Source: Clostridia bacterium (GTDB lineage Bacteria; Bacillota; Clostridia; Christensenellales; Borkfalkiaceae). From it: a stretch of DNA of 52,744 bases. Shown piece after piece: positions 35,735 through 50,138 of the stretch. A program made the position numbers and the translations under genes. Each line of letters opens with the position of its first letter. The stretch's first letter is position 1. Location of the stretch: the NCBI GenBank assembly GCA_900767495.1, contig CAAFZH010000104.1, forward strand, positions 1-52,744, in the 5' to 3' direction. The notes under the pieces were generated by a model, which was not told the origin of the DNA, searched no databases, and was given only the letters and a program-made list of their open reading frames with translations.

Positions 35735-35961
35735 ATTTTTTGCCTCCAGTAGTCCGCGCGGTTTGCGCCGCTCAAAAATTTGCCTCAAGCCTTCGGCAAA
35801 TTTTTAAGACAAAATTCGGTCGTTTCTCGTTTTTTATTATTTTTAACTCTCTCTGTCGGTTGGTCGGGTTTATTTTTCTACCCGCTTACGGAAAGTCGGG
35901 GGTGCGCGCCCGATACGGCGGGCGGCAAGCCACCCGCGCGTTTTCCCGGGCGTGCACGCCT

Positions 35962-37806
35962 TTATCCGACTTTCCTTATATCGGCGTCCGTAGCCGTCCT
36001 TTTCTCATTTAAGAGAGAGGTCTCGCCCACGAATTGACGATTATACGCCATATCCGCACCCGCTCGGTCGAACAACTCGCCGTGTATTTCTTTATCGTAG
36101 TACGACGCGTAATTCGTCCTGTACGCCCTGTCGTCGTAACCGCAAATCACTTTCGACGGTATATACCGCACCTTTGCGTCAGACAGTTTTAATTCTTTTT
36201 CCTTTACAGCCTTTTTTTCGCTACCCGTTTCGGTATTCCTTGCGTATTTAAATACTTGTTTTCGAAAGCCTATAGAGTAGACGAACTTTTTGAGTTTTGC
36301 CATAAGAACCGCCGCAATGGCGTTTCTGCCGACTTTTTTATCCAAGGTATCGGTAATCGCAACCTTTAAAAAGTCGTAGAGCCAAAGCGCAACCGTCGGC
36401 TTGCAGACCCATTCCTGATACGAGATTATAACGTTGCGCCCCACCACGCGGCGGCAGTCTATATAAATATTATTGAAATCCTGTTCGCAACAAACTACCG
36501 CCCACTTTAAAAAGTGCCTGCCGAGGCGGAACATATCCGATACGTCGTAGTATTCTATTTTTTTGTTGGAGAGTTCGCATTTCAACACCGCGCCTATTTC
36601 GTCGAATAGCACCACCGAATATAGCGGTAATCGCTCTATACCCCGTATATGGTCTAACGTAACCTTTGAGCAGGTTCTGCCCTTCGAGTCCGTCAGACAG
36701 ATATTCGACCACACGCACGGTATGCACGCCCGCATTATGTAGTAGTTGTAACTTGCTTTAATCTCGTGATACTCGAGCAGTTCGTTCTTGTCGTTCCTTT
36801 TGAGTATTTCTTTTTCGCGCGAGTGCCAGGACCAGTAGTCTAATTGTAACTCGCGCCATTTCATCAAACCCATAACGAATACGTCCTCCACCGCTTGCGA
36901 CGTCTTGCCGCAACCGGGGTCGCCCGCCTTGCACTCCACCACGCAACTATTATCCGTCGCTTTGGCGACGTCTTGCGCATAGGACAGCGCGAACAGCGCA
37001 TAAAAAGTTAAGAAGTGAGATAGACAAAACACCATAAAAAACAATTTCAGAGTGAACCCGAAATGCAGTTTTTGCCAGAACGACGGCACGAATCTATACA
37101 GTGCGTACAGTCCGCCGAGATACGCCGCTACGACCGCGCCGACAACGAGGCTTTTTACCGCCGCGCCCCTTTCCCTGTTTTTAATCACAGCCAAAACGAT
37201 TTTATACGCAAGCAAGGAAACGAGCGCGACGAGTATATTCTCGAAAAACGCGTATTTCGCAACGTTCATTATAAGGAATATAACGTCAAGCAGCATAGGC
37301 GCGAGATAATAAAGCATACCGTTCTTGCTTGCCGCCACAGCGTTAAACCACACGTAACGCTTGTTGCCGAGCGGGTTTTTACTCGAAACGACGTCGTCCG
37401 TCTTTTCGCGTATCGAGGTCGAAGTTACTACGTTTTTGCGCCACCGTTTTTGCCGTTCGTTGAGCGCGGTATCGTCAACCTTGCCGTAAAGTAAAGCGTC
37501 TAACTCGTACCGCACCGCGGGCGGGTATTTTAGTTTGCCTTGTGCCTTAACGGCGGTAAAAGCGTTATCTTTCGCCGCCGCGTAGTTTACCGTGAAACGC
37601 CGCTTTGAACGGTCGCGAGTTAAAGTCGTTACCTTTGCGGTAAAACTTTCGCTTTTTACCTCGGCGGTAAACGCGTTTTTCGCCTCGCCCGCGTCCGACG
37701 GTTTTATCGTCGGACGCGCCTTCGAGGTCGCCTTCGAGGTCGCCCTCGAGGTCGGCGGCTCGGTCGGAATATTCGGTTTTTTGGTTTTTATCAAATCGCC
37801 GAGCAT
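35962..37806 (-). CDS. 614-aa membrane-anchored P-loop NTPase: basic N-terminus, 4 TM helices, Zot/pI-like or FtsK-like ATPase domain
   Basis: Walker A KAGDPGCGKT (nt 36901-36930, aa 293-302) and Walker B-like YSVVLFDEIG (aa ~396-405). The downstream RLGRHFLKWAVVCCEQDFNNIYIDCRRVV resembles the hRH.G.Dii.itQ....id..iR block of Zot/pI ATPases and the RxxG.H...atQRP block of FtsK. Four hydrophobic helices span aa ~163-276. The start is coupled to the upstream stop (TAAAATG). Confidence 0.55.
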   Translation of the reverse strand: MLGDLIKTKKPNIPTEPPTSRATSKATSKARPTIKPSDAGEAKNAFTAEVKSESFTAKVTTLTRDRSKRRFTVNYAAAKDNAFTAVKAQGKLKYPPAVRYELDALLYGKVDDTALNERQKRWRKNVVTSTSIREKTDDVVSSKNPLGNKRYVWFNAVAASKNGMLYYLAPMLLDVIFLIMNVAKYAFFENILVALVSLLAYKIVLAVIKNRERGAAVKSLVVGAVVAAYLGGLYALYRFVPSFWQKLHFGFTLKLFFMVFCLSHFLTFYALFALSYAQDVAKATDNSCVVECKAGDPGCGKTSQAVEDVFVMGLMKWRELQLDYWSWHSREKEILKRNDKNELLEYHEIKASYNYYIMRACIPCVWSNICLTDSKGRTCSKVTLDHIRGIERLPLYSVVLFDEIGAVLKCELSNKKIEYYDVSDMFRLGRHFLKWAVVCCEQDFNNIYIDCRRVVGRNVIISYQEWVCKPTVALWLYDFLKVAITDTLDKKVGRNAIAAVLMAKLKKFVYSIGFRKQVFKYARNTETGSEKKAVKEKELKLSDAKVRYIPSKVICGYDDRAYRTNYASYYDKEIHGELFDRAGADMAYNRQFVGETSLLNEKRTATDADIRKVG

Positions 37807-37807
37807 T

Positions 37808-40801
37808 TTATCCTTTTATAATTATAACGTACCCGTAAATAAACGCCACGATAAGCAGTATCACCGTTATGCCGAGCCAAATCCACGTAAACCAGGATTT
37901 ACTTGAAAGCAAACCCGCTTTACTCGCTATTCCGGTTAAAAGCAAGTACATTATCGTACCGATAACGACCCAAAAAACGTACTGCACTTTTTTGTTCCCG
38001 GTTAAGCCGCTGACTTTATCCTCGAACCAGTTTTTCACCGCCGGATCTTCGTCCTCGCGGCTCGTCGCGCCGTTACGCCCGAACCAGGGCATATCCGTGG
38101 TATTATCCACGTACATATAGTACGAGAACACCTGCGAATTATCGTCGTTTAACAGTTCGCAAAAAGATAACAGCGGATAAGTCGCGACTTTTATAAATAC
38201 GTTGTTTGTATCGTTGAAAACGTTACTCAACTTTTTATATAAGTAACTGCTCGTTACTTTTGCCTGCGTATCCGAAAAAACGGTTATCGTTCCCGCGCCT
38301 GACGTTTTGGCGAAAATATAATTAAGGTCGCTTACTTTTTCCTCGAATACCGCGCAAGTGAAATACCCGTACAGATCCGACGGCGCAACTTCATCGGAAT
38401 ATTTAAAGTATTGCCGATTTTCGCGGTTGAGCATAAGAATAGACCAGTTCGTCCCTATATTATCGACCCATTGCTTATACGTAGTCAAAGGCACTTGCAC
38501 CTCTTTAGCGCGCCCGGAATCGTCCATAGTCTTAAGCGAAACGAAAGTATACTTTAAATTTATTGTAAAGGTAGCCTTGTTATCGAAGGCAACGTCTACT
38601 TTCTCCACTCGGCTCGCAAGCACGTTCATATTGCCGCTTTCGCGACCCAGAAGTTCCGCAATCTGCTTTTCGGTGATACTCTTTATATCCGCCACTTTGG
38701 AAACGCTTAACAAACCGTCGTAAGTGCAACGCCGCGCGAACGGCGCGCTTTCCTGCAAAGTTCCCAGCGTTTCGAGGTAGTTTATAACCACGTGCCAGGA
38801 GTCCGTAAGCGCGTAATGCACGGTAATTATTCCGTCTTGTTGCGCCGCGACTTTCGTAGGCGAAAACTCAAAGCGTTGTTCGAGCGGATAGTATTTATCG
38901 CCCGTAACCCTTGCAAACTCCGACTCGATATAGTCTATCCTGTAATTCGTCGGCACGGTTATATCGAAGTAGTCGCCTCGGCAACTCACCTCGCCGTTCA
39001 AATAGTTTTTAAAATACCCTTTGCCGCTTAAATCGTCCACGATATAAAAGACTGTGTCGTGTTCGTACTTCATTACGAGGTTTACCCTCGTTTCGTCGCC
39101 AGTGTCCCAGTCGAACGCGCTGCCGACGGGTTTATAATAATCGACGTCGCCTAAAGCCGCGACCTCGAGCGCGGGATAAATATATTCGTTGCCGAGTTTC
39201 GCCATTACGTTATCAAAACTCGAATACCGTCCGCGAATTTGTATGCCCCAGTCTTTTTCTATAAACGCCGTTTTGTCCTGCATTGAAAAATTCTTGCCGT
39301 CGTATACGAGCGCTTTATATTTTAGATACAAATCTAATTGAGTATCTTCCTCAATCTCCGCAATGGCAAGAACTTTTAAAGTCGCAAGCGCGGACTCCTC
39401 GCTGTTTTTAAAAGTTACAATAAGGTTTCTCGCCTCGTCGCTTATCTCTACGCTCGTTATGCCGGACTTTTCGCCGCCAACCGAGAAATCGCTCGCTTTA
39501 AGCGTTACAGCCCAATGGCAGTTGTTGGACAAGTACCCTTCTATCGTCGAGAAGTCGAAAACGAGTTGAGTTTTTTCCGCCCCGGGAACGACCGAAACCG
39601 TGTACAAATACATAGTAAGGTTGTCCTCGTTCACGCTCGCGTTGTTGGTGAGTTTTATAAAAAAGTCCTTATAGTAAAACGGCGAATAGTTTATGCTTAT
39701 AGTTCCCGTTTGAGAATCAAGGTTATACGAATAGTCGCAGGAAAGCGCCTGCATTACTATCCGCTCCGACAAGTTCCGTTCTTCGCCGTTTATTAAGCCG
39801 TTACTGTCTATGAAGTTTACGTTAAAGTCGGCAAGGCTCTCGAAGTAGTAGTCCGTTTGCGCCACCGTCTTTTTCTTGATACGCGCCGCGTACATATACT
39901 CTTCTACTTTCGCCGAGTTTAAAAAAATGCTTTTAGGTACGGTAAAAGTCGCCGTTTTTTCAACGTATTCGCCGTAATCTTTCATAGTCTTATATTTGAC
40001 GGTGATAGGCATATTGTCTTTAACGTCGGTAATGCCTAAAACGCGGTAATACGAATTCACTATGGAGTCGCCGCTGTTCTCGTTACATTCCTTCAGCCTT
40101 TGCTCGCAGTCTTTTTTATAGTTGTAAGCAAAGCAGTCCAGAGTTCCAAGTTTTGAAATGCTATAAGTTACCTTTCCCGCCTTATGCGGATAATAAGTGT
40201 AACGCTCGGCTTTTATACAAATAATAGCCGCTTGAAAATAGTAGGTTTTCTCGTAGGTAGACTCCCATAAATTTGTTTTAAACGGTTTAACCACCCCGAA
40301 ACTCATAGCCAGTTTATTTCCGAAAGCCCTTGCCCAGTTACCGTCGGCAATCTCTTGAAAAGTGAACGGGCAGGAGTATCTGAAATCGGTTTGCTCGGTC
40401 TTATCGGAGGTGTTGCCTATTATTATGTAGTCCTCGCCGTATTTCGTTTTGCGGGCGGTTAAACTCGTAGTGCTTACGTCCGAAAACGAAGATCTGTCGC
40501 CCGAAACTATAATTGCGGGTCTATAATAAGTCGCACTCTCCATTGCGTCCCCGGACGAGTTGGGGTAACTCTCGTAGGTTTTATCTTGTACTATCGTGGT
40601 AACGTCGTCCTGTCCCAACTCTATTCTGAACGTTCCGTCCGTATCGGAAGAAAAAGGGTAGTACGCAACGGAACTTATCCCTAACGAAGAACTGCCGTCA
40701 GCCTCCGCGCGGAAACTTGCGCCGAGGCTGACGGCTATCGCCGTTGCTATCATTAAACCTATTATAAGGCATAATCGCCTTATGCTTAATCTTTTATACA
40801 T
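37808..40801 (-). CDS. 997-aa exported protein with signal peptide and two C-terminal TM helices (candidate adsorption or spike protein)
   Basis: N-terminus MYKRLSIRRLCLIIGLMIATAIAVSLGASFRAEA. C-terminus VQYVFWVVIGTIMYLLLTGIA..FTWIWLGITVILLIVAFIYGYVIIIKG. I recognise no known domain in the ~900-aa ectodomain. Confidence 0.6.
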   Translation of the reverse strand: MYKRLSIRRLCLIIGLMIATAIAVSLGASFRAEADGSSSLGISSVAYYPFSSDTDGTFRIELGQDDVTTIVQDKTYESYPNSSGDAMESATYYRPAIIVSGDRSSFSDVSTTSLTARKTKYGEDYIIIGNTSDKTEQTDFRYSCPFTFQEIADGNWARAFGNKLAMSFGVVKPFKTNLWESTYEKTYYFQAAIICIKAERYTYYPHKAGKVTYSISKLGTLDCFAYNYKKDCEQRLKECNENSGDSIVNSYYRVLGITDVKDNMPITVKYKTMKDYGEYVEKTATFTVPKSIFLNSAKVEEYMYAARIKKKTVAQTDYYFESLADFNVNFIDSNGLINGEERNLSERIVMQALSCDYSYNLDSQTGTISINYSPFYYKDFFIKLTNNASVNEDNLTMYLYTVSVVPGAEKTQLVFDFSTIEGYLSNNCHWAVTLKASDFSVGGEKSGITSVEISDEARNLIVTFKNSEESALATLKVLAIAEIEEDTQLDLYLKYKALVYDGKNFSMQDKTAFIEKDWGIQIRGRYSSFDNVMAKLGNEYIYPALEVAALGDVDYYKPVGSAFDWDTGDETRVNLVMKYEHDTVFYIVDDLSGKGYFKNYLNGEVSCRGDYFDITVPTNYRIDYIESEFARVTGDKYYPLEQRFEFSPTKVAAQQDGIITVHYALTDSWHVVINYLETLGTLQESAPFARRCTYDGLLSVSKVADIKSITEKQIAELLGRESGNMNVLASRVEKVDVAFDNKATFTINLKYTFVSLKTMDDSGRAKEVQVPLTTYKQWVDNIGTNWSILMLNRENRQYFKYSDEVAPSDLYGYFTCAVFEEKVSDLNYIFAKTSGAGTITVFSDTQAKVTSSYLYKKLSNVFNDTNNVFIKVATYPLLSFCELLNDDNSQVFSYYMYVDNTTDMPWFGRNGATSREDEDPAVKNWFEDKVSGLTGNKKVQYVFWVVIGTIMYLLLTGIASKAGLLSSKSWFTWIWLGITVILLIVAFIYGYVIIIKG

Positions 40802-43542: not shown

Positions 43543-43980
43543 TTACGCTATAATTTTGAAAGTGTATTCGCCGAGTTTTTGCTTGTTTTCGCCCTCGTAA
43601 GCGTAAAACGCTATTACGTGGGTAGCCGCTTTGAGTTCGGCAAGCGAGATAACTTCCGCGCCCGTGTCGATATAGTTTTTGCCGTTTTTGCGGTCTGCAT
43701 CGGACGACTCGCCCGTTCTTACGCTCGTCGCAACTTCCGCACCGTTGTCTATACTGTACTTAATGGCGGTATACTTTTTATCCGAGAACGCTTTAATTCT
43801 GAACACGAGATCGTCGCCCTCTTTGTATTCGTCCTCGAGGTACATAACGCCGCCGAATTTAACGTCGCCCGCAGTGTCTACCTTGTTCGCCTTAAGCGCG
43901 CGTACTCCGAATACCGCGCCGAGTGTCGCCGCTACGGTCAGCAATACCGCTACGACGACGAGCCAAATTTTCTTTTTCAT
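43543..43980 (-). CDS. N-terminally anchored 145-aa protein with an Ig-like ectodomain
   Basis: MKKKIWLVVVAVLLTVAATLGAVFG, then a beta-rich sequence. GAAGGAG RBS. Confidence 0.5.
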   Translation of the reverse strand: MKKKIWLVVVAVLLTVAATLGAVFGVRALKANKVDTAGDVKFGGVMYLEDEYKEGDDLVFRIKAFSDKKYTAIKYSIDNGAEVATSVRTGESSDADRKNGKNYIDTGAEVISLAELKAATHVIAFYAYEGENKQKLGEYTFKIIA

Positions 43981-44564: not shown

Positions 44565-44915
44565 TCAAAACTCTATATCTTCGATATTGTCTACGAGAGA
44601 ATTAAGTTCGTCTTGCGTGTATTCTCTTTGCCGAAAAGCGTCTACCGTACCTTGTTTATGAGTTACCTCTATTTCAATTTTCGGCATTGAACCTTCGGCA
44701 GTGTCGCGCCAACGGTGTTGACGGAGCATATACGAAAAGTGTTTAATATCCCAAGTATACCTATAACCGCTTTTTAAATCTGCCAAGACAACCTTATTTC
44801 CCCTATTTTCAGTACAAATAAGCGTTCTGTCTTTTCCTTTGACTGTCAAATAGTAAGTACAACCGGGAACGCCGGGGATAACGGCAAAACTCGTTTTTCT
44901 CGCTGCGTTAGCCAT
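44565..44915 (-). CDS. 116-aa hypothetical protein
   Basis: GGAGGTG RBS. The start overlaps the upstream gene by 8 nt. No recognisable domain. Confidence 0.5.
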   Translation of the reverse strand: MANAARKTSFAVIPGVPGCTYYLTVKGKDRTLICTENRGNKVVLADLKSGYRYTWDIKHFSYMLRQHRWRDTAEGSMPKIEIEVTHKQGTVDAFRQREYTQDELNSLVDNIEDIEF

Positions 44916-45123
44916 TTTGCACCTCCGAAAGTTCCGTTTTGGTCGGCACGGCGGAACGATTAAGTACGCCCGTTATGCCGAAACCTATAAATGCTGCTAA
45001 AAAAACGACCGAAAAAGCCACTTTTACCGCGCTTATTAGTCTTGCGCGTTTTAAATAATCGTTCACCGCTTTATCGCTCGTTACTACCGCGCTTGCTTGC
45101 GCGCCTGCTTTTAAATTTTTCAT
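44908..45123 (-). CDS. 71-aa single-TM protein (size and topology compatible with a small coat or membrane protein)
   Basis: GAAGG RBS. One central hydrophobic helix, AVKVAFSVVFLAAFIGFGITGVL. Confidence 0.45.
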   Translation of the reverse strand: MKNLKAGAQASAVVTSDKAVNDYLKRARLISAVKVAFSVVFLAAFIGFGITGVLNRSAVPTKTELSEVQNG

Positions 45124-46338: not shown

Positions 46339-46767
46339 TTACTTATCGGCACTTTCGTCGGTGAGTAATTTTTTTTGTACCATTTTTAACAATTCCAAAT
46401 CGGAAATTTTTGCAGTAGCAAGAATTTCTTTTTCTTTCTCACTCGAATCGTTTTTTAATATGAGTTCGTCCCACTCTAACCGACGAGAAACTTCACTCAA
46501 TATGCTAAATTTTCTTCTTGCGTTTTCGGTTGTGTTTTTTTCGTTGTTCATACTACCGCTTTCCTCTTCTCTTTCCCGCTCAAGCCCCAAAAGGTAATCT
46601 GCAGACACATTAAAAATGTTACAAAGTTTTTTCAACGTGTCGTTAGGGGGTTCGCGTAAATTTAATTCATAAAAGTTGTAACCTTTAATAGATAACCCTA
46701 TTTGTTCGGCAACCTGTTTTTGAGTTAATCCTTTTTCTAAACGCAATCGTTTTAATTTCTCACCCAT
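46339..46767 (-). CDS. XRE-family HTH regulator (142 aa) with an acidic or coiled C-terminal half
   Basis: MGEKLKRLRLEKGLTQKQVAEQIGLSIKGYNFYE..LCNIFNVSADYLLGLE. Confidence 0.8.
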   Translation of the reverse strand: MGEKLKRLRLEKGLTQKQVAEQIGLSIKGYNFYELNLREPPNDTLKKLCNIFNVSADYLLGLEREREEESGSMNNEKNTTENARRKFSILSEVSRRLEWDELILKNDSSEKEKEILATAKISDLELLKMVQKKLLTDESADK

Positions 46768-46779
46768 AAAACGCACCCT

Positions 46780-47013
46780 TTATTTTTTTAGGCTTTGGTA
46801 AACTTTTGCGCCCGTTTCATCCTCAAGTCCTAAAAGGTAGTCGGACGAAACGCCGAAATACATCGCGAGCAAGATAATGTAAGGCGTATCAGGCAGTCTT
46901 TTATTTTTCTCCCACAACGAAATACTATCTTGAGTTAAATTTAAAATCTTTGCAAGGTCATTTTGAGTAATTTTTTTATCTTTTCTCAAAGCCTTTATGC
47001 GGTCGCCGTACAT
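46780..47013 (-). CDS. XRE-family HTH regulator (77 aa), first gene of the leftward transcript
   Basis: YGDRIKALRKDKKITQNDLAKILNLTQDSISLWEKNKR..VSSDYLLGLEDETGAKVY. Confidence 0.8.
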   Translation of the reverse strand: MYGDRIKALRKDKKITQNDLAKILNLTQDSISLWEKNKRLPDTPYIILLAMYFGVSSDYLLGLEDETGAKVYQSLKK

Positions 47014-47126: not shown

Positions 47127-47146
47127 TTTTTTAAAGGTTGCATTTT

Positions 47147-47419
47147 ATGGATATTTTTGCGTTGAGATTAGACAAACTTATCAAAGAAAATAGAATAACC
47201 CGATATAGAGTCGCGAAAGATTTAAAATGTAGTAAAGCGACTATTATAAATTGGTGTGAAGGTGTAAACGAACCGAAGGCAACACAAATTCGCATTCTCG
47301 CTGAATATTTTGACGTTTCGTCCGACTATCTTTTAGGGCTTGAGGACGAAACGGGTGCAAAAGTCTACAACAACACTGTAAACGATAATCACGGTCATAT
47401 TACTTTCAATCAAAAATAA
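47147..47419 (+). CDS. XRE-family HTH regulator (90 aa), divergent from the other two
   Basis: I place the start at ATG 47147. Sequence MDIFALRLDKLIKENRITRYRVAKDLKCSKATIINWCEG..VSSDYLLGLEDETGAKVY. Confidence 0.75.
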   Translation: MDIFALRLDKLIKENRITRYRVAKDLKCSKATIINWCEGVNEPKATQIRILAEYFDVSSDYLLGLEDETGAKVYNNTVNDNHGHITFNQK

Positions 47420-47534
47420 AACCTTTACTTACACCGGGGGACGCCCCGTTATATGAAAATTAAAAAAAGAGTAGATTCCTCTACCCTTATTTTGTGGTGT
47501 GCTTTTTGTGCAATCATTTTTTTGCCTTCACACT

Positions 47535-47643
47535 CGGAGGGGCTTTGCCCCTCTCAATAAATTTTAATTAAATAAATTTATTTTATTTTTATTCTCGACG
47601 TTCAAGCCGTTAGGCTCTTATTGCGACGACAGTCGCTCTATGA
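47535..47643. repeat. right copy of the ~105-nt imperfect inverted repeat
   Basis: See 35043-35144. A further 15-nt shared hairpin, CGGGGGACGCCCCGT (47435-47449), matches the complement of 35040-35054-region sequence ACGGGGCGTCCCCCG at 35240-35254. Confidence 0.85.
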
Positions 47644-47815
47644 GTGAACGATAATTCCGAACTCCCCAAAAAAAACGAAACGGTCCACTCGCCGCCCCGT
47701 TCTCGCTGTCATTGCGAAGGAGCGTAGCGACTGCGGCAATCCCACCGAATAACCGACAAAGCAATAGTTCAGGGGGATCGCCACGCTTGCGCTCGCGATG
47801 ACAACAAATTTCAGC

Positions 47816-47861: not shown

Positions 47862-48137
47862 TTAAAATAAGTCGCTATGACTGCCCGTTCTGATTAAGTA
47901 CAAGTAGAGAATTTCTTCGTCGTACTCGTACACAAGTAGCCAGTCGGGTCTTATATGACATTCGCTACAACCCGCGTAATTACCCGTTAAGGTATGATTT
48001 CGATATTTTTCGGGTAGAGGACTACCTTCCGCAAGTAAATTCAACACGGTTTCGAGCAGTTTAAAGTCAGTACCGCGTTTTTGCATTAGTTTAAGGTCTT
48101 TTTTAAATTGAGTGGTCGGCTTTAGAGTATATTTCAT
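47862..48137 (-). CDS. yafQ: type II toxin, YafQ/RelE family
   Basis: MKYTLKPTTQFKKDLKLMQKRG..PLPEKYRNHTLTGNYAGCSECHIRPDWLLVYEYD..LIRTGSHSDLF is a near-textbook YafQ-family sequence. It overlaps the antitoxin stop by 4 nt. Confidence 0.9.
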   Translation of the reverse strand: MKYTLKPTTQFKKDLKLMQKRGTDFKLLETVLNLLAEGSPLPEKYRNHTLTGNYAGCSECHIRPDWLLVYEYDEEILYLYLIRTGSHSDLF

Positions 48138-48406
48138 TTAAGCAAATCCTCAATCATTTCGTGCGCGTCGGTATAAGACTTGCCGACGGTACGGTCTTTC
48201 TTCATAAGTCTGACTTCCTCTATCGCCGCAAGCGTTTGCGCGTTGGGAGTTATTTCGATACTAAACGGTATCGCCTGCTCCCTCACCGCCTGTTTTGCAA
48301 ATACGGTAAACGCGGTAGACATATTCATTCCCAATTCCGAAAACAATACGTCGGCTTGCTTTTTAAGGTTTTCGTCCATTCTTATGGTTACGTTTACGGT
48401 AGACAT
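48134..48406 (-). CDS. dinJ: type II antitoxin, RelB/DinJ family
   Basis: MSTVNVTIRMDENLKKQADVLFSELGMNMSTAFTVFAKQAVREQAIPFSI is the typical DinJ/RelB RHH N-terminus. Confidence 0.9.
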   Translation of the reverse strand: MSTVNVTIRMDENLKKQADVLFSELGMNMSTAFTVFAKQAVREQAIPFSIEITPNAQTLAAIEEVRLMKKDRTVGKSYTDAHEMIEDLLK

Positions 48407-48437
48407 AATTTTTCACTCCTTTACGTTTGGTATTTAT

Positions 48438-48499
48438 ATTTTACCATATATTTTATGCAATGTCAATAAATTTATGTGCAATATAATTACAATGCACAT
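48438..48499 (-). promoter_or_regulatory. promoter of the dinJ-yafQ operon with an upstream palindrome
   Basis: Minus strand: TTGACA (48466-48461), 17 nt, TAAAAT (48443-48438). Inverted repeat ATGTGCA (48474-48480) / TGCACAT (48493-48499). Confidence 0.65.
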
Positions 48500-48918
48500 A
48501 TTTTTATATAATTTTTCTCTTATGGGAGGTGTTTTTGCATTATATAATTTGTCGCACGGGTACATTGCGCGCAGGCGCGGCACTTAAATTTCAATATTTT
48601 TAGTTCTAAAAATATTGAACGCCCGGCTAATTTTTCATCCCGATTTTTTTGAGATATAATAGTATTAACTATTATTCGGAGGTCTGTATTTTGAAAAATA
48701 CCGAGCAACTTTTTAACTATTCCGACTCCTTAAAGCAAATATTGTCCATCGCGCGGCAAACCCTTTGCTTTGACGATAAATCCCTGCAACTTTCTACCTT
48801 GCGTGAAAAGTTCAAGGTTTTATCGTTTCCCGCAACAAATTTTACCCCGCCTCAACCGTGCGGGGCGCAAAAAGAAGATGAAACAGCGCTTTCGTTTACT
48901 GAAAAGGAGTATACGAAA

Positions 48919-49941
48919 ATGCCTAAAAAATTTAAAAACGAATTTCGCACCGGGCGCGTTAAAGCGCGCGTTCGCCAACGCGAAGACGGTCGCTACGAAA
49001 TTCGCTGTCAAATCAACAAACAAAAAATAACAGCCTCGAGCAAAATTCTCGGGGTCGCAAAAGAAAAATTTATCGAACGGTTAAAAATCGCGGCTAACCC
49101 GCAAGCGGCACTAACCTCAAGCAACGTTAAACTCGGCGTTTATATGAAAAAATGGCTCGAAACGGTAAAAAAGCCGTATATCAAGCCGAATACTTATAAA
49201 TTCTATTTACAAACCTTTAACGCGTACATAGTTCCGCGCCTCGGCGACCGCGAACTTACGAGCATTAAAGCCTTCGAGTTACAAGACTTAATCAACGAGT
49301 TTACTAACGCCGAAAAGTTCCGAACCGCTCAAAAAGTCAACTTGCTACTCTCTGCCGTATTCGATTACGCCGTTTCCGACGAACTTTTACAACGCTCGCC
49401 GATGAAAAAAGTTATCGTCGGCATTTACGAGCAGGAACACGGCACGCCCTTAACCAGGAGCGAAGAATCAGACTTTATTCGTGCTTTTATGGGCGACCCG
49501 GGAGTGTACCGTCAGGCGTTCGCCTTTATTCTTTATACCGGGCTAAGACGCAGCGAACTTTCTTCCGTAAGCGTTTCCGATAAATGGGTTACGGTTACAA
49601 CCTCGAAACAACGCAAAGGCAAGAAAGAAAAGCAACGCCGAATACCGATTTCGCCTATGCTGCGGAAGATCTTACCGCTAATAGACGTCGCCGCGATTAA
49701 AGCGCTTTCGGTCGGTACACTCACGAAGTGGTTTAAAGTCTACTGCCCGTCGCACCACTTGCACGACTTGCGACATACGTTTATTACTCGATGCCAGGAG
49801 TGCGGCATACAACGCGAATTAGTTTCGCTTTGGGCAGGACACGCCGCCGACAGTTCGATAACTTCTGCCGTTTACACGCATTTGGAGCAATTCGAAGGTC
49901 GTCAATTAGAAGAAATGCAAAAGTTTATCTACGATTTTTAA
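48919..49941 (+). CDS. int: tyrosine recombinase/integrase of the 16.4-kb element
   Basis: I place the start at ATG 48919 with an AAGGAG RBS; the track's TTG at 48649 adds 90 aa of non-integrase-like sequence. Arm-binding-like N-terminus RVRQREDGRYEIRC. Catalytic C-terminus HDLRHTFITRC..LWAGHA..VYTH. The gene ends 122 nt from the att repeat. Confidence 0.85.
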   Translation: MPKKFKNEFRTGRVKARVRQREDGRYEIRCQINKQKITASSKILGVAKEKFIERLKIAANPQAALTSSNVKLGVYMKKWLETVKKPYIKPNTYKFYLQTFNAYIVPRLGDRELTSIKAFELQDLINEFTNAEKFRTAQKVNLLLSAVFDYAVSDELLQRSPMKKVIVGIYEQEHGTPLTRSEESDFIRAFMGDPGVYRQAFAFILYTGLRRSELSSVSVSDKWVTVTTSKQRKGKKEKQRRIPISPMLRKILPLIDVAAIKALSVGTLTKWFKVYCPSHHLHDLRHTFITRCQECGIQRELVSLWAGHAADSSITSAVYTHLEQFEGRQLEEMQKFIYDF

Positions 49942-50063: not shown

Positions 50064-50138
50064 TGGCTGGGGTAGAGCGATTCGAACGCCCGAATGACGG
50101 AGTCAGAGTCCGTAGCCTTACCGCTTGGCGATACCCCA
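50064..50138 (-). tRNA. tRNA-Gln(CUG): tRNA-Gln (anticodon CUG), CCA encoded
   Basis: The reverse complement TGGGGTATCGCCAAGCGGTAAGGCTACGGACTCTGACTCCGTCATTCGGGCGTTCGAATCGCTCTACCCCAGCCA folds as a cloverleaf. Acceptor stem TGGGGTA/TACCCCA; anticodon stem ACGGA/TCCGT with loop CTCTGAC; T-arm GGGCG-TTCGAAT-CGCTC. It closely resembles bacterial tRNA-Gln. Confidence 0.9.

Follow-up and report, generated by a model that had tools for sequence, protein, structure and literature searches.

Introduction

Filamentous phages encode a membrane-anchored ATPase, pI or Zot, that carries a Walker A motif, a Walker B motif and then a block of the form DE.G ... R.H/G ... Q(D) ... R; its gene comes after that of a large protein with a signal peptide or transmembrane (TM) anchor and precedes or neighbours a replication gene, which in gut inoviruses stands directly after Zot. 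The pI protein falls within the FtsK-HerA superfamily, and genuine pI-like proteins may have one or two TM domains at either the N or the C terminus (Roux et al. 2019, PMC6813254). Here, we describe an ATPase gene that shares these motifs and this neighbourhood, together with the 16.4-kb integrated element that carries it, in a contig of 52,744 nucleotides (nt) from a Clostridia bacterium (GenBank assembly GCA_900767495.1, contig CAAFZH010000104.1; the whole contig is hereafter called the window). The locus departs from canonical pI/Zot in that the ATPase domain of the latter is N-terminal, with any TM helix and periplasmic domain coming later, whereas here a tail and four TM helices come first; in addition, the ATPase of the element has no extracytoplasmic domain, and no pIV secretin is encoded.

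Three other kinds of system invite comparison. Like the cryptic inoviruses of Roux et al., the element has an ATPase for which Zot is the closest Pfam domain, with TM segments at the N terminus (a possible arrangement in those phages) and a replication initiator nearby, and it is integrated with att sites, an integrase and toxin-antitoxin cargo; the long form of the ATPase family has four TM domains instead of one or two, whereas the short-form relatives have mostly two, so that the wider clade fits the latter range. Acholeplasma phage L2 (Plasmaviridae) has a 12-kb circular, integrating genome, a large envelope protein with a signal peptide, and ORF3 (P42538), in which an N-terminal hydrophobic stretch is followed by ALPGGGKS near residue 100 and by the further motifs LILDEF and LLRHQGF...LLSQ. 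However, ORF3 has only 312 amino acids (aa) and lacks a long tail or four-TM bundle, no other gene is common to both, the L2 host is wall-less, and the resemblance of ORF3 to our clade is no more than moderate. TraB of the Streptomyces AICEs (conjugative and integrative elements of actinomycetes; for example, pSAM2) and TcpA of pCW3 belong to the same superfamily and likewise place N-terminal TM helices before a C-terminal motor; in contrast to them, no member of our family matches the FtsK_SpoIIIE domain (PF01580), the motif block is of the Zot type, and there are no plasmid relatives.

The closest conceptual parallel is provided by the IME1 elements of Dehalococcoides, which are 21–28 kb long, confined to Chloroflexota and equipped with a primase-helicase, and for which filamentous particles have been found in viral fractions; the proposal of their authors is a novel virus, filamentous or budding, that is non-lytic and exceeds the known inoviruses in size (bioRxiv 10.64898/2026.09.15.751708). 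Similar to our element, they are integrative and circularising, lack tailed-phage hallmarks, and encode repressors, a tyrosine recombinase and a pI-like ATPase (HOG04) that has several proteins with TM segments or signal peptides beside it. They differ in having a primase-helicase where our element has a RepL-type initiator, and HOG04 is likened to our ATPase by description only.

Against this background, pI/Zot-like ATPases of non-tailed integrative elements, and TM segments ahead of the ATPase, are already known; what is new is a distinct unannotated family with a four-TM-plus-tail architecture, its association with RepL and very large anchored proteins, and its host group. On balance, we think it probable that the ATPase is the assembly or extrusion motor of a temperate, tail-less, virus-like element and represents a divergent member of the pI/Zot branch of the FtsK-HerA superfamily.

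Results

The ATPase and the kinship of its motor domain

The open reading frame (ORF) of the ATPase starts with ATG and encodes 614 aa (Table 1). A word-indexed search of 5.8 billion proteins yielded 85 clusters at 90% identity that match it, nearly all of them 580–655 aa long with a query coverage of 80–100%, so the ORF is not a chance one. The Walker A motif GDPGCGKT (aa 295–302; 36901–36924), the Walker B motif VVLFDE (aa 398–403; 36598–36615), with a spacing of ~95 aa between the two, and the Zot-type block RLGRH...EQD...RR (RLGRHFLKWAVVCCEQDFNNIYIDCRRVV, aa 427–455; 36442–36528) are all present where the initial annotation of the window had placed them. In an alignment of 37 family members, G295, P297, K301, D402, E403, R427, E441-Q442-D443 and R452-R453 are invariant or almost so. 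The AlphaFold2 (AF2) model made from this alignment has a mean predicted local distance difference test score (pLDDT) of 76.6, exceeding 90 across most of residues 140–400 and 460–520, and its alpha/beta NTPase domain begins at residue 290.

The assignment of this domain to the Zot/pI type is supported by profile, alignment and fold comparisons. Zot (PF05707) was the sole Pfam match of the ATPase (E 0.012, 15.5 bits; aa 397–458 against profile positions 83–142). Scanned singly, 14 of the 37 family members matched Zot (best E 1.3e-5), with no second Pfam family recurring; in a 62-sequence alignment of the wider clade of long and short forms (A2), Zot was again the only recurring Pfam family (9 of 62 members at E≤0.01, best 3e-6). 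When A2 was compared by hhalign with a reference alignment of nine pI/Zot proteins (from M13, Vibrio fs2, a Ralstonia phage, Propionibacterium B5 and five gut or saliva inoviruses), the probability was 96.5% (E 7.9e-10), and aa 396–459 of the ATPase were paired with residues 82–143 of M13 pI, which brings together the Walker B motif, the R-H/G and Q(D) positions and the downstream arginine. Family alignments were needed for this result, as hhalign against single sequences was uninformative (M13 pI, 1.7%; L2 ORF3, 0.2%). Fold comparison agrees, if weakly: the top Foldseek match in PDB was the N-terminal domain of Neisseria Zot (2r2a; E 1.7e-3, target TM score 0.49–0.51), and the best named matches in BFVD were both 'Zonular occludens toxin [Inoviridae sp.]' (E 1.2e-5 and 2.9e-5).

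The initial annotation had held that the domain could equally be read as an FtsK/TraB translocase core, which finds no support at the family level: PF01580 was matched neither by the ATPase (E≤1) nor by any of the 37 (E≤0.1) or 62 (E≤0.01) members, in which no FtsK, VirB4 or other Pfam family recurs apart from Zot, and FtsK (6t8g) ranks 42nd among the PDB fold matches. Searches of NCBIfam and PADLOC gave no match for the ATPase or its neighbours, and a sequence-profile search against PDB returned generic P-loop or spurious matches only. As a separate observation, the best BFVD match of the ATPase model overall is an unnamed 269-aa viral protein (A0A894JLK1; E 8e-10, target TM score 0.58), which might hint at a closer known virus group.

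N-terminal tail, juxtamembrane segment and TM bundle

K, A, T, S and R are abundant in the first 160 aa of the ATPase (32 K+R against 16 D+E), in keeping with the composition noted in the initial annotation for a basic tail of about that length; however, the unconserved tail comprises only ~104 aa, and residues 105–160 form a conserved and confidently folded juxtamembrane segment with the consensus NVVT..DLR...PKVVKS.N.QGL.RY.F. Across the family, the tail is 65–114 aa long and net positive in 35 of 37 members, although its sequence is not conserved. In the window, a 12-nt tandem unit at 37710–37756 (TCGAGGTCGCCT-like, three overlapping copies) encodes TSKA repeats at aa ~18–32. Variants of 610 aa (96–98% identical) lack exactly one TSKA unit; the repeat copy number thus differs among strains, and the length of the disordered tail therefore shifts by repeat slippage.

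The block between this region and the NTPase domain is predicted to span the membrane four times, as had been proposed: the long AF2 helices (161–181, 187–209, 215–239 and 249–285) match Kyte-Doolittle hydropathy peaks, and pLDDT exceeds 90 over the bundle. The 207–216 loop between TM helices is basic, and because of this charge pattern and the positive-inside rule both the tail and the NTPase domain are predicted to be cytoplasmic.

Among the 51 clade members with a recognisable Walker A motif, 50 have one or more predicted TM segments ahead of it (mode two), and in 44 no such segment follows, whereas in the nine canonical pI/Zot proteins Walker A lies at residue 7–20 with nothing before. The inverted topology that the initial annotation had pointed out is therefore real with respect to the textbook pI but not unprecedented, given the proteins of Roux et al. 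and L2 ORF3. Particular to the long form are the bundle of four helices, the charged tail and, between them, the conserved juxtamembrane segment. The further suggestion that the TM block is a fused pVI-like module is unsupported, as a hidden Markov model (HMM) of aa 105–212, the N-terminal stretch that the long form has in addition, gave nothing better than E 0.03 in 648 ORFs from the short-form loci and fetched phage sequences, among them the whole genome of M13 with its gene VI.

Size, forms and hosts of the ATPase family

An exhaustive HMM search of 1.84 billion representative sequences retrieved 241 proteins (clusters) at E≤1e-3. About 13 of these have the long, four-TM form; the remainder are 350–500 aa long and match from approximately the third TM helix onward, mostly with two N-terminal TM segments. 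Examples from Eubacterium and Lachnospiraceae metagenome-assembled genomes (MAGs) have 399–428 aa; two to three hydrophobic helices lie at their N terminus, and the motifs recur. Records of the family are labelled only 'hypothetical protein', and as hosts they name MAGs of uncultured Clostridia and Christensenellaceae that come from the gut of humans, sheep and goats. The family is frequent in human and ruminant gut metagenomes, with some clusters containing 50–115 member sequences.

A large exported protein precedes the ATPase

The ATPase gene abuts that of a 997-aa exported protein (...AAAGGA TAA A ATG...), stop and start codons being one base apart; the initial annotation had called the two translationally coupled. 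This arrangement extends to the family: in 21 of 21 long-form loci, an ORF of 388–1023 aa with 1–3 C-terminal TM segments directly precedes the ATPase, with a signal-like N terminus in 18 and a gap of −4 to 178 nt, mostly ≤7 nt. It had been asked whether homologues are always flanked by a large signal-peptide protein, and for the long-form loci these counts answer in the affirmative. The exported proteins diverge fast: only four homologues sharing words with the 997-aa protein were found, and relatives derived from the loci are 23–28% identical. No PDB sequence resembles the 997-aa protein. An AF2 model of the 997-aa protein from five close sequences had a pLDDT of 37 and was discarded. We consider this protein a candidate adsorption or spike protein.

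The element and its gene content

A perfect 45-nt direct repeat, present in two copies only in the window (33639–33683 and 50064–50108), brackets 16.4 kb. The element is integrated at the 3′ end of a tRNA-Gln gene and encodes an integrase, an XRE switch, a RepL-like initiator and six exported or membrane proteins, whose operon has the ATPase and RepL genes at its end (Table 1). Along the ATPase operon, gene order runs from right to left in the window, with the integrase end first and the ATPase and then RepL last.

Table 1. Coordinates of the element and ATPase features in the window
Feature	Position	Strand	Basis
attL, 45-nt copy of the tRNA-Gln 3′ end	33639..33683	+	Perfect direct repeat
Strongly structured non-coding region with GC-rich hairpins, after the Rep gene	35030..35310	−	Single-stranded DNA (ssDNA) fold z-score −5.6
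RepL-like (pSN2-type rolling-circle) replication initiator	35315..35788	−	Kept downstream of the ATPase in 18 loci
Membrane-anchored Zot/pI-like NTPase, 614 aa	35962..37806	−	ORF, homologous clusters, AF2, Pfam/hhalign/Foldseek
Cytoplasmic P-loop NTPase domain (predicted location), aa 286–614	35965..36951	−	Conserved motif residues; hhalign to canonical pI
Four TM helices, predicted N-in/C-in, aa 161–285	36952..37326	−	AF2 helices; hydropathy; loop charges
Conserved juxtamembrane segment, short helices, aa 105–160	37327..37494	−	Conserved columns; pLDDT 83–94
Disordered, highly charged N-terminal tail, aa 1–104	37495..37806	−	pLDDT <50 at residues 1–100; sequence unconserved
Exported protein of 997 aa with a signal-peptide-like N terminus, a large ectodomain rich in beta structure and two TM helices at the C-terminal end	37808..40801	−	No known domain
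Five consecutive membrane-anchored or exported proteins, ~145, 159, 143, 249 and 330 aa	40813..43980	−	No known domains
71-aa single-TM protein with Shine-Dalgarno site	44908..45123	−	Only small coat-protein-like ORF in the element
Divergent XRE/Cro-CI-type regulators	46339–46776, 46780–47013, 47138–47419	−, −, +	HTH_3, E 4e-15 to 4e-7
YafQ toxin / RelB antitoxin cargo	47862..48406	−	Pfam E 9.5e-36 and 5e-12
Tyrosine integrase	48649..49941	+	Phage_int_M, Phage_int_SAM_3, Phage_integrase
tRNA-Gln(CTG); its 3′ 45 nt (50064–50108) are attR	50064..50138	−	

The XRE regulators, which form a putative lysogeny switch, are kept in 11–14 loci, and seven small genes without known domains lie between them and the run of membrane-protein genes. 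The five membrane or exported proteins of this run, two of which carry lipoprotein boxes, are candidate structural or assembly proteins; the 145-aa protein (43543–43980) is kept in 17 loci. A 94-aa ORF similar to the 71-aa single-TM protein occurs in a related locus (L003). Among the 18 homologues of the protein encoded downstream of the ATPase, 13 matched RepL (PF05732; best E 2e-8), a family of ~18-kDa helix-turn-helix initiators of pSN2-type rolling-circle plasmids (PMC5703833). None of the element proteins scanned resembled a capsid, portal, terminase, tail or relaxase protein or a component of a type IV secretion system.

The short-form relatives sit in 10–13-kb modules that contain a recombinase, an XRE or S24 CI/LexA-like repressor (the S24 type in one relative's element) and an HTH_36 protein, followed by a large surface protein with Flg_new or leucine-rich repeats (LRR), the ATPase and then small genes.

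Excision and circular forms

Two metagenomic contigs with family members, L033 (14,080 nt) and L034 (13,768 nt), are circular, as their termini overlap by exactly 55 nt, and a contig from a separate sample (L035) is a circular permutation of L034 with 99.6–100% identity. A further contig, L031, which is ~92% identical to the window element, joins the RepL side (window 34156–33639) to the integrase side (window 50108–48722) with an overlap of exactly the 45-nt repeat; this is the attP junction expected from excision. L001, L002 and L031 showed no end overlap and are simply cut. The element thus excises, and an episomal or tandem form exists. An integrase, att repeats at a tRNA gene and a circle with attP, the features of a site-specific integrative element, are all found.

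Discussion

We read the ATPase as the motor of a temperate, tail-less, virus-like element because five features coincide: an ATPase of the pI/Zot type, a Cro/CI-like switch together with an integrase, a rolling-circle initiator encoded right behind the ATPase, a run of membrane-inserted candidate structural proteins, and, among the element proteins scanned, a lack of alternative packaging or transfer machinery. In such an element, four TM helices would anchor the ATPase with both ends in the cytoplasm, and the protein, probably a hexamer by analogy with its superfamily, would oligomerise so as to form an assembly site in the cytoplasmic membrane. Its C-terminal domain would then hydrolyse ATP to drive the replicated genome, plausibly circular ssDNA after rolling-circle replication initiated by RepL, out through the membrane, and the genome would collect membrane-inserted structural proteins on its way, with the 997-aa protein serving for adsorption at its terminus. 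DNA or a partner protein may be what the charged, disordered tail binds. That the ATPase lacks a sizeable extracytoplasmic part fits this picture, because a host without an outer membrane needs neither a secretin nor a periplasmic pI domain. As to the particle, a filament of the inovirus kind is favoured over a vesicle of the plasmavirus kind.

Several observations weigh against this interpretation. The Zot score of the ATPase (15.5 bits) is below the Pfam gathering score of 20.3, the Foldseek match to 2r2a is only narrowly ahead of RFC, FlaH and RecA folds, and the HMM search that retrieved the 241 proteins stops short of canonical Zot proteins. At 13.7–14.0 kb for the circles and 16.4 kb for the integrated copy, the genomes are bigger than those of characterised filamentous phages, which measure ~4–11 kb (bioRxiv 10.64898/2026.09.15.751708); the largest Vibrio records in the phage collection have 13.0 kb. 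Inoviruses typically encode several small single-TM proteins of 30–90 aa, but only one such ORF with a ribosome-binding site was found, the other membrane proteins of the element having 145–997 aa, and the large exported protein has no detectable similarity to M13 pIII. Virus collections likewise yielded no relatives: tblastn of the ATPase and one short-form relative against 50,697 phage records (INPHARED) gave no match, pattern and tblastn searches of IMG/VR returned none, and the element proteins scanned had no significant PHROG match. Finally, what the circles prove in these sequence data is excision and episomal existence, not packaging.

The main rival reading is a plasmavirus-like, enveloped budding virus, with double-stranded DNA (dsDNA) in pleomorphic particles. 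Its ATPase would load circular genomes into buds of the membrane that are studded with the exported proteins and lipoproteins, and the spike or fusogen would be the 997-aa protein. Six membrane or exported proteins, two of them with lipoprotein boxes, beside one small coat-like ORF are consistent with such a virus, as is the 12-kb circular, integrating genome of L2 with its large signal-peptide envelope protein; moreover, the circles were assembled from ordinary metagenomic libraries, which fits dsDNA. The Walker A motif of L2 ORF3 lies near residue 100 after a hydrophobic stretch, its family is related to pI/Zot by hhalign (97.0%, E 8e-11) and aligns with A2 over 122 columns that begin at Walker A, include Walker B and RH and reach Q (69.5%, E 4.2e-5), and ORF3 is among the BFVD fold matches of the ATPase (E 9.4e-4). 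However, the clade is closer to canonical pI (96.5%) than to L2 ORF3, and a crude hydropathy scan calls no TM segment in the hydrophobic stretch of most ORF3 family members. No similarity links the large exported protein to L2 ORF13 (hhalign 0.2%), and a RepL rolling-circle replicon suggests ssDNA output. The hosts also differ, as known plasmaviruses infect wall-less Acholeplasma whereas those of the element are walled Clostridia, and we know of no precedent for budding through peptidoglycan. We regard a budding virus as unlikely. A conjugation-type DNA translocase is more doubtful still. Here, the locus would be a small integrative element with a single membrane ATPase comparable to TraB of AICEs, its surface protein a mating adhesin and its RepL doubling as a nicking enzyme. 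The order of TM helices and P-loop motor is that of FtsK, TraB and TcpA, and IMG/VR does not mark the family as viral. AICEs replicate by rolling circle. They are described as elements of 11–17 kb that integrate in tRNA genes and are transferred by conjugation (PMC2440964); the Rep proteins of some rolling-circle plasmids can serve as relaxases (PMC5703833), and pI itself belongs to the FtsK-HerA superfamily (PMC6813254). Against these parallels stand the recurrence of Zot where PF01580 is unmatched in all 37 and 62 members, and the hhalign pairing of the motif block with pI. Furthermore, tblastn of the ATPase and a short-form relative against 72,556 plasmids (PLSDB) found no relatives, and the element proteins scanned had no Tcp, VirB4 or relaxase match. 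The S24 repressor of one short-form element and the Cro/CI-like switches of long-form elements are typical of prophages, yet they are seen in some integrative and conjugative elements. To our knowledge, single-protein transfer of dsDNA is known only in mycelial actinomycetes.

A function other than DNA movement, in which the ATPase would power the insertion, secretion or display of the adjacent surface protein as adhesin cargo, or would be a Zot-like toxin, seems very improbable to us. It would account for the strict and tightly spaced adjacency to a large exported protein and for the adhesin-type Flg_new and LRR repeats in the large proteins of short-form relatives, and Zot was first named as a toxin. 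However, signal peptides of the ordinary Sec type make a dedicated ATPase unnecessary for the large proteins, and the ATPase has almost no extracytoplasmic part with which to act as a toxin. Moreover, the ATPase is the one gene kept in every related element, beside the replication gene, and it therefore serves a core function of the element and is not cargo. Two further candidates were examined and rejected. A defence system or KAP NTPase was set aside, as there was no PADLOC match and the TM helices are N-terminal, not inserted within the P-loop domain. An icosahedral membrane-containing phage (a tectivirus, corticovirus or sphaerolipovirus with an A32-like ATPase), raised by A32 matches in BFVD, was rejected because there is no soluble protein of capsid size, no protein-primed family B DNA polymerase and no terminal inverted repeats (TIRs), and because the ATPase aligns specifically to Zot.

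The elements could constitute an unrecognised, family-level lineage of non-tailed temperate viruses in Christensenellaceae and other gut Clostridia, with genomes of 14–16 kb, RepL and a pI-type motor to which a four-TM channel and a DNA- or partner-binding tail are N-terminally fused, missed by virus catalogues; their particle, a filament or vesicle, would be built from unusually large anchored proteins and would leave through a Gram-positive envelope with no secretin; we put this forward only tentatively, and rather doubt it in so complete a form. Detection of phages without tails, the filamentous ones included, is badly incomplete because it has pI/Zot as its sole marker and divergent versions escape it, a problem that this ATPase family illustrates. 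Christensenellaceae are a health-associated, poorly cultured gut family. Should the element be a virus, it would provide them with a phage of the chronic-infection type and supply new profiles for finding such phages; it would also widen the range of pI architectures to an anchor that comes first, with four helices and no periplasmic part, which bears on how monoderm envelopes are crossed by filaments or buds. Should it instead be a single-ATPase transfer element, it would be the first outside actinomycetes.

Additional features of the element and the flanking chromosome

Regulatory, replication and cargo regions. The divergently transcribed XRE genes are joined by an 81-nt inverted repeat (81% complementary; 46798–46878 and 47288–47368), and the products of both end in an identical C-terminal motif (SSDYLLGLEDETGAKVY), which suggests a recent duplication or gene conversion in the regulatory switch. 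The true start of the RepL-like gene is probably the ATG at 35734, as called in L001, which would give 139 aa instead of 157. The structured region that follows this gene is, from its predicted folding, a candidate terminator, origin or packaging signal. In L002 and L045, a DUF4417 gene comes after the ATPase.

Cargo accumulates in the arm that lies between the Rep and integrase genes, a hotspot that contains YafQ/RelB in the window, HicA/HicB in L034 and L035 (~9.9–10.6 kb) and stacked HTH_3 proteins in L033 (~10.3–13.8 kb). Adjacent inverted-repeat pairs of 53 nt (89%) and 49 nt (84%) occur at 35042–35162 and 47517–47644, 12.35 kb apart; each site lies downstream of an outward-facing gene (the RepL-like gene and the XRE gene at 47138–47419) and contains the hairpin GAGGGGCAAAGCCCCTC. 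These ~120-nt repeats were considered as genome ends (TIRs) and dismissed. As they are missing in L031, L033 and L034, they are specific to the window copy and not part of the core; they may represent a common terminator module or the trace of a recombination that imported the toxin-antitoxin or accessory arm.

Near the left end, a 25-aa hydrophobic ORF with a lysine-rich end (33976–34053, minus strand; MDIISILCLVLIYLIVKELNDNKKK) faces a promoter-like sequence at 33853–33896, which is a 75% inverted copy of the sequence upstream of the RelB/YafQ operon (48427–48470), and a terminator-like hairpin lies at ~33940–33990. Judged by its arrangement, the stretch 33853–34053 is similar to a type I toxin gene that an antisense RNA meets convergently; a search of the non-coding arm against Rfam at a relaxed threshold gave nothing credible.

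Flanking chromosome. No third att copy was found in the window. Three large ORFs of the left flank (563, 653 and 996 aa) had no Pfam match at E≤1e-5. Immediately left of attL, a truncated or frameshifted tyrosine integrase (32400–33433), 38% identical to the element integrase over 237 aa, shares a low-GC stretch (29951–33433; GC 0.39–0.40) with an AraC-type regulator and an AAA_14/DUF4143 ATPase, and this stretch was probably left behind by a different element that had used this tRNA-Gln site earlier. Beyond it, the left flank is a glycan-degradation locus (1706–29828), a long run of large genes on a single strand, which includes a GH95 fucosidase-like gene, a GH2 gene, two GH67N/DUF4838 genes, a hyaluronate-lyase-N/Big_2 gene, a GFO/IDH oxidoreductase gene and an ABC solute-binding protein gene.

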